Shown: positions 11,352 to 59,926 of the stretch, in pieces
Numbering within the stretch: the first letter of the stretch is position 1
Layout of the letters: each line of letters begins with the position of its first letter
From: Promethearchaeota archaeon
Lineage (GTDB): Archaea; Asgardarchaeota; Lokiarchaeia; Sigyniarchaeales; SOKP01
Assembly (NCBI GenBank): GCA_016840165.1
Contig: JAEOSU010000031.1
Location: forward strand, 1 to 63,998
Direction of reading: 5' to 3'
DNA length: 63,998 bases
Notes under the pieces: model-generated
What the model saw: the letters and a program-made list of their open reading frames with translations, nothing else
Database searches by the model: none
What the model was told of the DNA's origin: nothing
Translations under genes and position numbers: made by a program

Positions 11352-12683
11352 ATGGAAAAAGATTACGATTATTTCTTCAAAATTAGTGTTGTGGGTGATC
11401 CTGGGATCGGAAAGACGGCATTTATAGAGACATTTGCACCAGAAAGTTATTTTAAAAAAGAGTCGCTAAAAAAATCTTTTTTTCAAGAAAGGGTCGTTAA
11501 AAGAATTGGTGTAAATTTTTATGAAGAAACTATAGTTCTTAATACTGATTACGGTTCAAAAAAATGTAAAATTCGGATATGGGATACAGCAGGTCGAAAG
11601 TCTTTTGAAAGCATTCGACCACAGTTCTATAGAGGTTCTAAAGGGGCTATACTTTTTTTCGATTTAGCAAATAGAGATTCTTTTATAAACATTAATAAAT
11701 GGATCGTAGAAGTAAGAGAGGGTTTAATGCGTGACGAGAGAAGAAGGGAGAAGAAAGGAATGGGAAAGATTCCGATTCTTCTAGTCGGGAATAAAAGTGA
11801 TTTAGAGACTTTTAGAGTTTCACCAAAAGAAATAGATCAATTTATCCGTGATCATAATTTATATTATATAGAAACGTCCACTGTAACCAAAGAGGGAATA
11901 ATTGATTGTTTTTATTCAATTACCAGCTTAATGCTTGGAGTAGATATTCATAGTGAATACTTCTTATCAAATGATATAATCTATCGTCCAAATAGAAATC
12001 CTGAGTCCCATACATCTTCAACTCCTACATTATCAGCTAAGGATCTAAGAAATTTAAGTCAGAAAGCTATCTTTCAGAAATTAGATATACTTGAAAAAAA
12101 ACTAGATAGTTTTAAAACCCAAGAAATTGCGTTTTCAAAGCAAATGGAGTTAGAGGAAAGAAAATTAAAACTGAAAGAAAAAGAATTACAAATAAAAGAA
12201 ATACAATTAAATGAAAAACTTCAGGCTGAGGATTTGGGTGTATTAGATAAGAAAATTGTGGTATTTGTAAGCTATGCAACAAAAGATAAGGACTTGTTTA
12301 AAATTAAAGAATTCGCTGAAATTTTAACAACCTATGAAAAAGTCGATGACGTGCTTTATTGGGAAGAGGATCTGAAAGATAATATAGTAAAATATATGAG
12401 TGATAATCTCGATAAATGTGATATACTGCTTTTATTTTGCTCTCCGCACGCTTTGAAGTCAAAAGCGATCGAAAAGGAGTGGACATCGGCAGATATTATG
12501 AATAAACCTATAATACCTATCTTTATAAAATTAAATCACATCCCTCCACTTTTAAAGTCAAGGTTAGGTATAGAATTTGACACATTTGATCTACAGAAAA
12601 CAATTGATGAGGTTTATAATTTAATAATAAAAAAAATGGAAAACAGATTAATCGATATTAAAGATCTTAAAACTGATTTTTAG
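11352..12683 (+). CDS. Rab-like small GTPase - coiled coil - TIR domain fusion
   Basis: G1 GDPGIGKT, G3 WDTAG, G4 NKSD, G5 ETS; EK-rich coiled coil; TIR motifs VFVSYA, FCS and KEW. Confidence 0.88.
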   Translation: MEKDYDYFFKISVVGDPGIGKTAFIETFAPESYFKKESLKKSFFQERVVKRIGVNFYEETIVLNTDYGSKKCKIRIWDTAGRKSFESIRPQFYRGSKGAILFFDLANRDSFININKWIVEVREGLMRDERRREKKGMGKIPILLVGNKSDLETFRVSPKEIDQFIRDHNLYYIETSTVTKEGIIDCFYSITSLMLGVDIHSEYFLSNDIIYRPNRNPESHTSSTPTLSAKDLRNLSQKAIFQKLDILEKKLDSFKTQEIAFSKQMELEERKLKLKEKELQIKEIQLNEKLQAEDLGVLDKKIVVFVSYATKDKDLFKIKEFAEILTTYEKVDDVLYWEEDLKDNIVKYMSDNLDKCDILLLFCSPHALKSKAIEKEWTSADIMNKPIIPIFIKLNHIPPLLKSRLGIEFDTFDLQKTIDEVYNLIIKKMENRLIDIKDLKTDF

Positions 12684-12832
12684 TTCTAAAAAAACATAGG
12701 TCTCGTACATTAATCCTAGAGATTTATAAAGGTTGATTAGTATATGTACAATAAGACATCAGTGGTCAGGGTGAATCTTACCTGCTCTTAACTATAAAAC
12801 ATTGTACTGTAAAAAAGATACTAATTATCACT

Positions 12833-59200: not shown

Positions 59201-59926
59201 TTGGAATTCGAATATAAAAATCAGAGAGATATTACTAAAGCTGAGATGGTAAATCAACTTAATATTGAAATTTCAGAGACGGATTATTATACAAGTTTGC
59301 TATCGACTACCATCAATTATGATCCCTCCGAAATACCCCAATTAGAAAGCTTAGGAACAAAAATCCTAAAAAAATTCATCAGTCCCACTTCCTACGATTT
59401 AATTATTAAATTGGAGTATGATTATAAGCGAGCTTTTAAAATTGCTAAATTTCTCTTAGATAGAGGATTTATTCAACATTTTCGAAATTATCCCATTGTT
59501 GGAGAACAAATTGAGGCAGGGAAAAAGATAGAGGATTTAATTATATTTATCAGTTATGCTACGGTTGACGCAGATTTATATAAAGTAGAAGAATTAGCGT
59601 CGAGATTAGAGTCCTATAAGGAAATTAAAAAAGTTTTATACTGGCAAGAACACATGACAGATAATATCATCAAATATATGAGTGATAATTTAGCAAGATG
59701 CAGCACAATGATTTTACTTTGCTCAGAAAATGCTCTTAATTCGAGTCCTGTAGATAAAGAGTGGACTGCTGCAGATGCAATAGGTAAACCAATAATTCCT
59801 GTATTTTTAAAACAAGAACATATACCTCCACTTCTTAAATCAAGATTAGGACTTCAATATGATCTTGTAGATTTTGAGAAAAATATAATGCAGCTTCACA
59901 GTTTAATTTTAAAAAAATGTCAATAA
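56261..59926 (+). CDS. 21-WD40-repeat - helical hairpin - winged-helix-like - TIR protein
   Basis: 21 GH...WD-type repeats counted; C-terminal IFISYATVD...LCSENA...DKEW TIR. Confidence 0.92.
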   Translation: MEMELPDKKLKESFEYPQHLYPKRKGLAKAFHMTQSFGHSSDVTSVIISHKRDYIISGSKDKTLKVWEFATGNLLKTIEAHNEPILSVAIAVDDSYIFTCSSDHLIKVWGLRAGHLINEFKDHTDSVTSLKVTYDGKYLISGSKDKYAIIWDILNAKPIHKYQHKSGITSIDVTKDGNLLLCGDEDGVITIWDLNKNKFVRTIKGHSGAITSLSISADLEYFSSGSDDNTVRVWDLSKGKPLQIYKDHSNAVRCVAISPKGNLLVSGSDDKTIKLRNIETGVTLRTLRGYTKEILSIAFSPEGDYIVTGSTDNNIMVWEIMEGKLENTINAHSDGINVVSISPEGNYVASGSNDKTVKLWDITNQKLVRTFIGHKKPISSIAFSQNQKFLISSSLDKDAIIWDISGSRALTSINKIGTNVNSLVFTPTTNQIMMGLSNNYLKMWDMNSREFIWESKEHKGSITDIKFTPNGKYFVTSSEDKHLKIWDFVSREVIKDLSGHKGKILSLDIAPNGAKISSGADDNTVKIWDFYTGDLIKSLENHTNEVSSISYSPIGNCFISGSGDETIKVWDNSKYELIQSFEGHQKPVSSIDITNDGKYAISGSQDGTLKFWSLTFGGIFKNIKGHTENVNSVAVSSDKQYAVSGLSNKSLIVWNLSNGNLIKTLKGHNDIISSVAFLSGGKNVVSASYDNTLKIWDIKTGEVLWNLNGHNGPVTSVAASSDGKFVVSGSKDKTIIIWEPSTGKLLKRLKDHASGVTSVDISPNGELIASGSEDNSINIWNMKKGKLIRTLKGHNGVVTSVAFSPDSEYLASGSKDQSVKLWKLNTGELDYSFERLNSPVLTVTFSSDGSFIACGTEDNFVRVWDFHEKYQSSYYYLSKVNSATFIPNTNQIIAGYDSGDVLIWDLLMEEQEQLLQELRAKLSDIEEMINNNNYSEAIESLNYILETANVFNFEEIRSIAFEKLKNLRDPEETQSNIRKILEFEYKNQRDITKAEMVNQLNIEISETDYYTSLLSTTINYDPSEIPQLESLGTKILKKFISPTSYDLIIKLEYDYKRAFKIAKFLLDRGFIQHFRNYPIVGEQIEAGKKIEDLIIFISYATVDADLYKVEELASRLESYKEIKKVLYWQEHMTDNIIKYMSDNLARCSTMILLCSENALNSSPVDKEWTAADAIGKPIIPVFLKQEHIPPLLKSRLGLQYDLVDFEKNIMQLHSLILKKCQ

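Follow-up and report, generated by a model that had tools for sequence, protein, structure and literature searches.

Why would one archaeon fuse related TIR domains to a small GTPase, to a membrane helix bundle and to WD40 propellers, and what output would such a shared domain deliver? We addressed this question in a Promethearchaeota archaeon, on a stretch of 63,998 nucleotides (contig JAEOSU010000031.1 of assembly GCA_016840165.1) that we call the window; it is about 31% GC and belongs to a genome of 3.6 Mb. Three of its genes encode the TIR proteins P0001 (Ras-TIR), P0002 (TM-TIR, for its transmembrane bundle) and P0003 (WD40-TIR), whose coordinates are collected in Table 1. TIR domains link bacterial, plant and animal immunity and nicotinamide adenine dinucleotide (NAD) signalling, and archaeal TIRs have barely been charted. 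A 2020 survey counted 118 archaeal TIRs and found no mostly archaeal group (PMC7075850), an Asgard defence census names TIR only within two of its listed system names (PMC11291487), and our literature search found no paper treating an Asgard TIR family. Our best explanation, which we hold to be fairly probable, is that the TIR is a portable output module, predicted to be catalytically competent, which is placed on swapped inputs and which in its WD40 form is accompanied by a Nudix protein that reads or terminates its signal. The family would thus offer candidates for the wiring of sensors to NAD chemistry, in defence or in cell-state signalling, among the closest archaeal relatives of eukaryotes.

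All three proteins match Pfam TIR_2 (PF13676) above its curated cut-off of 28 bits: P0001 over residues 304-410 with 48.7 bits, P0002 over residues 173-279 with 48.3 bits, and P0003 with 57.7 bits. Over about 135 aa, the TIRs of P0002 and P0003 are 43% and 50% identical to that of P0001, and 42% identical to each other. The subfamily signature comprises FISYATxD, LYW, FCS, S-x5-EW, IIPxF and HIPPLL; KYMSDNL and HIPPLLKSRLG are identical in P0001 and P0003. The inputs are as different as the TIRs are alike. The N-terminus of P0001 matches Pfam Ras with 114.5 bits and also matches Roc; the protein has no COR domain, as a ROCO protein would, and its residues 190-300 are without a significant Pfam match. 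P0002 begins with about 4-5 hydrophobic helices. P0003 contains 19 Pfam WD40 stretches, corresponding to about 19-21 repeats in three propellers (aa about 40-925), followed by a linker of roughly 160 aa that an AlphaFold2 model renders as all helical (pLDDT 86) and for which Foldseek returned no significant match. A PCI-like winged helix is doubtful for this linker: Pfam was blank, the match to a PCI-like protein was weak (E 0.01) and the model was strandless. NACHT, NB-ARC and STAND gave no Pfam match in P0001-P0003. A sequence-only reading of the window had placed the three TIRs and their motifs and had named a GTPase, a membrane bundle and WD40 propellers as inputs; the translations, the PF13676 matches and the genome-search positions bear out the former, as do the Ras/Roc matches, the hydrophobic helices and the WD40 stretches the latter. 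As a separate observation, the GTPase domain of P0001 has DTAGR at G3, compared with DTAGQ in Ras/Rab proteins, and KRIGVNF in the switch I region, which suggests slowed or changed GTP hydrolysis.

The window holds only part of the family. The TIR_2 profile matched eight places in the genome, and a hidden Markov model (HMM) built from the three window TIRs recovered all eight copies together with a ninth fragment at a contig end (1e-27 to 1e-73). The partner differs in every copy: beyond the Ras domain, the membrane bundle with its C-terminal domain (CTD) and the triple WD40 propellers, we found a PCI-like region, an SMC-type ATPase head with a zinc ribbon, a STAND-like region (with a weak nSTAND5 match under the Pfam cut-off, on contig C91), TPR repeats and a membrane domain, the last with Gln replacing the catalytic Glu of its TIR. 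That three of nine copies lie inside 47.4 kb of one contig gives p of about 0.02 under random placement, so the clustering is real but modest. We read the three genes as separate sensors and not one operon: a distance of 40 kb parts Ras-TIR from the other two, and its orthologues form a line to themselves.

To establish where else the subfamily occurs, we searched related genomes, the phylum and a general protein library. A profile of the eight copies had matches in 37 of 41 relatives, and copy number ranged over 0-24 between these genomes. Among 301 genomes of the phylum, at E<=1e-10, matches were found in 48 of the 68 genomes of the window's family and in 5 of 7 from a neighbouring family (f2), with a small number in another two families of the class and weak ones in one further family (8 of 21); most other Asgard families in this search had no match. 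An exhaustive search of 1.8 billion representative proteins returned 6587 matches at E<=1e-3, 919 at 1e-10 and 399 at 1e-30. In a scan of named genomes, which started from a 3-sequence alignment and subfamily-specific peptide patterns and is thereby biased towards the subfamily, matches of at least 30% identity carried only the labels Promethearchaeota, Hodarchaeota, Helarchaeota and 'uncultured archaeon', bar one record; they included Promethearchaeum syntrophicum MK-D1 at 33% identity. Bacterial loci reached at most 28-29%. The one record is a metagenome-assembled genome labelled 'Candidatus Deferrimicrobium sp.' (DATKTP010000006.1; L069), which carries subfamily TIRs of 55% identity on a contig of 37% GC. 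We rejected it as a bacterial member: its TIR matches (genome G320) share contig numbers and near-identical coordinates with those of G312, a genome of the same class as the source genome. The label is probably wrong or the bin mixed, and we read the record as a mislabelled Asgard genome. Among assignable relatives, then, the subfamily is seen only in Asgard archaea and mainly in the window's class.

As outgroups we took 11 TIR_2 domains of bacteria, drawn from one genome of the Acidobacteriota and two of the Anaerolineae. In an IQ-TREE phylogeny (LG+C20, 111 rows), all Asgard TIRs, including the eight copies of the source genome, formed one clade of 99 leaves with an SH-aLRT support of 97, and every bacterial TIR fell outside it. 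The sequence-only reading had named a fall of the three TIRs into separate bacterial clades as the outcome that would undo its claim of shared descent; with these outgroups, no such split appeared. That the three TIRs were acquired independently from different bacteria, and are alike only as all TIR_2 domains are, is scarcely credible. It is true that TIR_2 is widespread in bacteria and undergoes large expansions there, with 26 and 43 matches in the two Anaerolineae genomes (G318 and G319, behind loci L101 and L102), many of them in proteins of 800-2000 aa. However, identity among the window TIRs is 42-50%, compared with 28-29% for the best bacterial loci, and in the same run the subfamily HMM scored bacterial TIR_2 domains at 4-43 bits and most of the Asgard copies tested at 95-127 bits. 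The multiplication in the Anaerolineae is, in its own right, a bacterial expansion parallel to the Asgard one.

A second tree of the family alone (FastTree, 258 domains) resolved the individual lines. WD40-TIR sits in a clade of 21 (support 91) made up of orthologues of 1222-1232 aa, which many Promethearchaeota genomes encode, Ras-TIR in a clade of 9 (support 93), and TM-TIR within one of 22 (support 99) whose TIRs all have the same CTD behind them. Deeper in the tree, the Ras-, WD40- and PCI-linked TIRs form one large clade (125 leaves, support 92), while TM-TIR joins the SMC-head type and several TPR types in another (58 leaves, support 93). The window TIRs share 73-93% TIR identity with the best-sampled orthologues of the same architecture (L045, L067 and L075) and at most 57% with any paralogue in their own genome, so the paralogues are older than the genus. 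The three are therefore old, maintained paralogues of one subfamily. The proposal of a lineage-specific TIR expansion stands insofar as this is one Asgard-only family in a clade apart from the bacterial outgroups; it does not stand as a recent local expansion, since closer orthologues exist elsewhere.

If the TIR is an old module, its partners are not fixed. Among the 150 best representatives, the TIR is C-terminal in 91, N-terminal in 29, in the middle in 9 and alone in 10. A Pfam tally of 115 multi-domain members, all of which match PF13676, yielded 83 partner families, with most partners unnamed; the commonest were LRR (11), PCI (9), Roc/Ras (6), TPR (5), WD40 (3), beta-helix (3) and periplasmic-binding domains (3). 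Partner swapping is recent in places, because TIRs that are 68-76% identical to the Ras-TIR module carry other heads, namely LRR-PCI, PCI alone, a ubiquitin-like stretch or an unnamed region. The idea of many sensors with one output fits this pattern of one TIR joined to dozens of partner domains. The CTD of P0002 illustrates the exchange from the other side. It occurs in 22 TIR proteins and also, with no TIR, at the C-terminus of a 1043-aa PCI-like protein of the window, where aa 848-1035 are homologous to it (E 1e-12, 26% identity over 206 aa); this second copy matches 12 TIR-CTD proteins of other genomes. At least 20 proteins of other Asgard genomes have the CTD behind their TIR, some of them 1400-1980 aa in length, and no Pfam family matches the CTD. 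We also compared the PCI-TIR copy of the source genome (contig C15) with the 1043-aa protein; only a 47-aa stretch is common to the two (E 5e-4), which does not establish homology over the whole domain.

What output the module delivers depends on whether it is an enzyme. In NADase TIRs the catalytic Glu sits between strands C and D and is more than 90% conserved across NADase groups, whereas adaptor TIR groups do not keep it (PMC7075850). In the Asgard subfamily, 255 of 258 domains retain the Glu of the 'KEW' motif, and the count is the same for the Asp of SYATxD and for the Ser of S-x5-EW. An AlphaFold2 model of the TIR (pLDDT 92.8, pTM 0.88) has four strands alternating with helices and places the Glu in helix 77-88, between strand C (64-69) and strand D (93-97); the same residue aligns with the E of 'WVKKE' in PDB 9m0n. 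When we compared the model with the PDB by Foldseek, the top 26 listed matches were all TIR domains, among them SPARTA TIR-APAZ, BtTir, AbTir, SARM1, Hydra TRR-2 and MAL (TMq 0.52-0.74, 15-21% identity). By sequence, the nearest solved chains were a Bacillus SEFIR domain, a TIR-TPR protein and Hydra TRR-2, at E 3e-7 or weaker. Because the Glu is kept in nearly every domain, we infer that the subfamily is of the enzyme type, a predicted NADase, rather than of the adaptor type.

The alternative is a non-enzymatic network in which homotypic TIR-TIR contacts join the GTPase, membrane and WD40 proteins, as in TLR-MyD88. Some features of the family would suit it: tandem TIRs, 2-4 per protein, occur in 11 of the 150 best representatives, some with little else (e.g. 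P0004, 604 aa); TM-TIR adjoins a propeller-TIR gene in relatives and lies 7 kb from WD40-TIR here; and in fold the TIR is roughly as close to MAL, MyD88 and Hydra TRR-2 as to the NADases. We nevertheless consider this network improbable. Its adaptors would be expected to have lost the Glu that 99% of members keep, the Pfam match is TIR_2 and not PF01582 (no match listed for P0001-P0003 and a weak one in 5 of 115 members), and the Nudix partner described below points to nucleotide chemistry. The likeness to eukaryotic TIR receptors and adaptors that the sequence-only reading saw is weak on the first two of these grounds. Complex prediction for the TIRs of P0002 and P0003, run with separate alignments, scored 0.14 relative to a mark of 0.32, and counts neither way.

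Between the TM-TIR and WD40-TIR genes lies P0154, a membrane protein with a large N-terminal region (380 aa), two hydrophobic helices (about aa 385-445) and a C-terminal Nudix domain (Pfam NUDIX, 62.8 bits) in which the REVREE box is intact. With duplicate genomes removed, the Nudix gene adjoins WD40-TIR in 10 of 12 assessable genomes. Four arrangements occur, as the Nudix gene lies downstream, either co-oriented or convergent, or upstream, either co-oriented or divergent. G323 is one of the exceptions; there the gene is found 3.6 kb from the TM-TIR/propeller-TIR pair. It also adjoins a TIR-CTD gene in another locus (L073), and in a different genus (G030) a homologue of 33% identity is flanked by two small TIR genes. 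Because the linkage outlasts rearrangement, it suggests a functional tie between the two genes. Nudix domains hydrolyse or sense ADP-ribose derivatives (PMC9503650), so such a neighbour fits a nucleotide output of the TIR.

The same pair of genes would also fit an RNA-cap pathway, in which NAD-capped RNA would lose its nicotinamide to the TIR, and the ADP-ribose-RNA so formed would be decapped by the linked Nudix enzyme. Removal of nicotinamide from NAD-RNA is known for TIR proteins of bacteria and for one from an archaeon (PMC10937652), decapping of ADP-ribose-RNA is known for a Nudix enzyme of an archaeon (PMC10663502), and both the gene linkage and the intact Nudix box are as this pathway would have them. 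We nonetheless judge it very improbable: a Nudix protein anchored in the membrane behind a large domain would be an odd RNA enzyme, and Pfam revealed no RNA-binding domain in the TIR proteins.

Several further features of this neighbourhood are recorded here for their own sake. Directly upstream of the WD40-TIR gene stands the hydrophobic open reading frame P0155, which is conserved at this place in 6 related loci (46-75% identity) and has no Pfam or PADLOC match. A second group of Nudix paralogues (G000:C50:2730-4394 in the source genome; G004:C168; G008:C47) is present in most genomes of the genus, and in G004 and G008 it is found directly beside the first. In two close relatives (L075:5921-7555 and L081:4947-6590), a single-propeller-TIR gene of 544-547 aa, absent from the source genome, adjoins the TM-TIR gene, with an LVIVD-repeat gene next in line; the TIR of the propeller protein has Leu replacing the Trp of 'EW' and groups in a divergent basal clade. 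We had considered a TIR protein of roughly 551 aa beside TM-TIR in relatives as a TIR-for-Nudix swap of the window's Nudix protein and rejected this; it shows no similarity to the Nudix protein and is a single-propeller-TIR protein.

Our preferred reading, the portable enzymatic module, would operate as follows. The input domain (the GTPase, the membrane bundle with the CTD, or the WD40 propellers; elsewhere LRR, PCI-like, TPR, STAND or SMC-head regions) would control self-association of the TIR. Once assembled, the TIR would cleave NAD+ or an NAD-derived substrate through its conserved Glu, giving ADP-ribose-type products. For WD40-TIR, the adjacent membrane Nudix protein would most likely bind or hydrolyse this product and so act as a receptor/effector or as an off-switch. 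The module may serve antiviral conflict or the signalling of internal stress and cell state. A bolder version, which we regard as doubtful, is that Loki-type Asgard archaea possess a second-messenger system derived from NAD and peculiar to them, in which sensors linked to GTPase, membrane, WD40, LRR and PCI domains share one TIR generator and the membrane Nudix protein is the dedicated ADP-ribose-type receptor/effector. If true, this would be a prokaryotic counterpart of eukaryotic ADP-ribose/cyclic ADP-ribose signalling, and one connected with GTPases of the Ras family in the archaea nearest to eukaryotes. Of the findings as a whole, the Ras-TIR fusion and the Nudix linkage were the least expected.

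A number of observations weigh against this preferred reading. The bacterial outgroups are a small sample of three genomes from two phyla, and the library of representative proteins carries no taxonomy, so that an Asgard-only distribution holds for assignable relatives. The Nudix gene is present in genomes where WD40-TIR was not found (G007), and the second group of Nudix paralogues, about 50% identical to the first, is unlinked to TIR genes. PADLOC recognized no known defence system for P0001-P0003. The neighbours in the window are metabolic (a glycyl-radical enzyme, an MFS transporter, oxidoreductases, OsmC and a thioesterase) and form no defence island. Lastly, orthologues of WD40-TIR are evenly conserved, at 52-80% in the WD40 region, 56-81% in the linker and 61-82% in the TIR, with no hypervariable sensor; a housekeeping role therefore fits better than an arms race.

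The last three of these points bear equally on a narrower version of our explanation, confined to defence and to depletion instead of signalling, in which the proteins are antiviral abortive-infection sensors: a viral cue would be perceived by the repeat, GTPase or membrane domain, the TIR would deplete NAD+, and the cell would die or arrest. Several points are in its favour. TIRs joined to LRR, WD40, TPR, STAND or SMC-head regions have the layout of known prokaryotic immune proteins, the source genome encodes TIR-STAND-like and TIR-SMC-head paralogues, the latter of which matches defence ATPase models, copy number varies widely between related genomes, TIR genes are often paired or tandem, and the Glu is conserved. 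Still, the linked Nudix hydrolase suggests that the product is read or cleared and not that NAD+ is simply depleted. Together with the stable orthologues, the metabolic neighbours and the PADLOC result, this leads us to regard this antiviral version as rather unlikely.

We compared the window proteins with known systems. Bacterial TIR_2 NADases (AbTir, BtTir, PdTIR, TcpB/BtpA and SPARTA TIR-APAZ) share PF13676, the fold and a Glu in the helix after strand C. The Asgard TIRs differ from them in their low structural identity, in their own LYW, FCS, IIPxF and HIPPLL signature, in their partners (Ras, PCI-like, CTD, and triple WD40 without an NTPase) and, among assignable relatives, in a distribution restricted to Asgard archaea. 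Lineage-specific multiplication of TIRs with diverse partners, including repeats, GTPases and NTPases, is already known in multicellular bacteria (Kaur et al. 2020, PMC7159879), a study that does not mention Asgard archaea. There, TIRs are predicted to make nucleotide-derived signals, sometimes with a small membrane protein reading them (PMC7159879). In contrast, the Asgard family is a separate clade, the window proteins are without vWA-MoxR, STAND or GTPase-centric operon contexts, and the membrane protein linked to WD40-TIR carries a Nudix domain and not SLATT.

Thoeris likewise has a Glu-bearing TIR and possibly shares an ADP-ribose-type signal read by a protein encoded next door. However, ThsB is a separate TIR with a ThsA effector, whereas the Asgard TIRs are fused to large input domains. 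The window has no adjacent ThsA-type SIR2/SLOG or Macro gene, the neighbours being a protease in addition to the Nudix, OsmC, thioesterase and oxidoreductase genes, and the four SIR2_2 matches of the genome lie on contigs C15 (29 kb from the nearest TIR gene), C9, C51 and C54. PADLOC ThsB models did not match P0001-P0003; the window proteins have weak ThsB_TIR Pfam matches (21.6-24.1 bits). STAND/NLR-like TIR receptors (Avs, bNACHT and plant TNL) have a central STAND NTPase, set between the effector and the repeats, that P0001-P0003 are without. SARM1 resembles the model we propose in that regulatory domains of a non-immune kind restrain its TIR NADase, which assembly activates, and it is among the Foldseek matches; the window proteins have neither ARM nor SAM domains, no orthology with SARM1 and 17-20% identity. 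Animal TLR/MyD88-type TIRs share the fold, and sister members of the subfamily have LRR-TIR and TM-TIR layouts, but the window proteins are set apart from them by the retained Glu, the missing PF01582 match and the absence of death-domain partners. Nudix domains serve as ADP-ribose binders or hydrolases in NrtR regulators and in the NUDT9-H domain of TRPM2. The Nudix domain of P0154 is predicted to be placed to meet similar ligands, and it differs from these in a box that is catalytically intact by sequence and in its position behind two transmembrane helices and a 380-aa domain.

Table 1 Features of the window (positions 1 to 63,998)
Feature	Position	Strand	Description
P0001 (Ras-TIR)	11352..12683	+	443 aa; Ras/Roc-like GTPase (aa 10-192), coiled-coil linker, C-terminal TIR_2 (Pfam, translation)
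P0001 Ras-like domain	11352-11950	+	
P0001 TIR envelope	12234-12644	+	TIR_2 genome-search match 12261-12581
P0002 (TM-TIR)	51725..53359	+	544 aa; hydrophobic helix bundle (aa 1-141), central TIR_2, CTD (Pfam, sequence)
P0002 TIR envelope	52214-52624	+	TIR_2 genome-search match 52241-52564
P0002 CTD	52658-53269	+	aa about 312-515; conserved, about 200-240 aa
P0003 (WD40-TIR)	56261..59926	+	1221 aa; triple WD40 propellers, helical linker, C-terminal TIR_2 (Pfam, sequence)
P0003 linker	59018-59530	+	
P0003 TIR envelope	59516-59923	+	TIR_2 genome-search match 59543-59884
P0154	53480..55204	-	574 aa; membrane Nudix protein
P0155	55542..55988	+	148 aa; hydrophobic open reading frame
PCI-like helical protein	14916..18047	+	1043 aa; TIR-less, weak PCI match, C-terminal CTD 17457-18020
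Peptidase	12833-14056	+	Trypsin-like, C-terminal zinc-ribbon-like match
Large open reading frame	868-7377	-	2169 aa; no Pfam match at E<=1e-5
AN1/leucine-rich repeat protein	22137-23483	+	448 aa; AN1-type zinc finger and leucine-rich repeats

Among the other genes of the window, the orthologous Ras-TIR locus ends at a contig edge just where the peptidase would be compared. In the window, the peptidase gene follows directly downstream of Ras-TIR.

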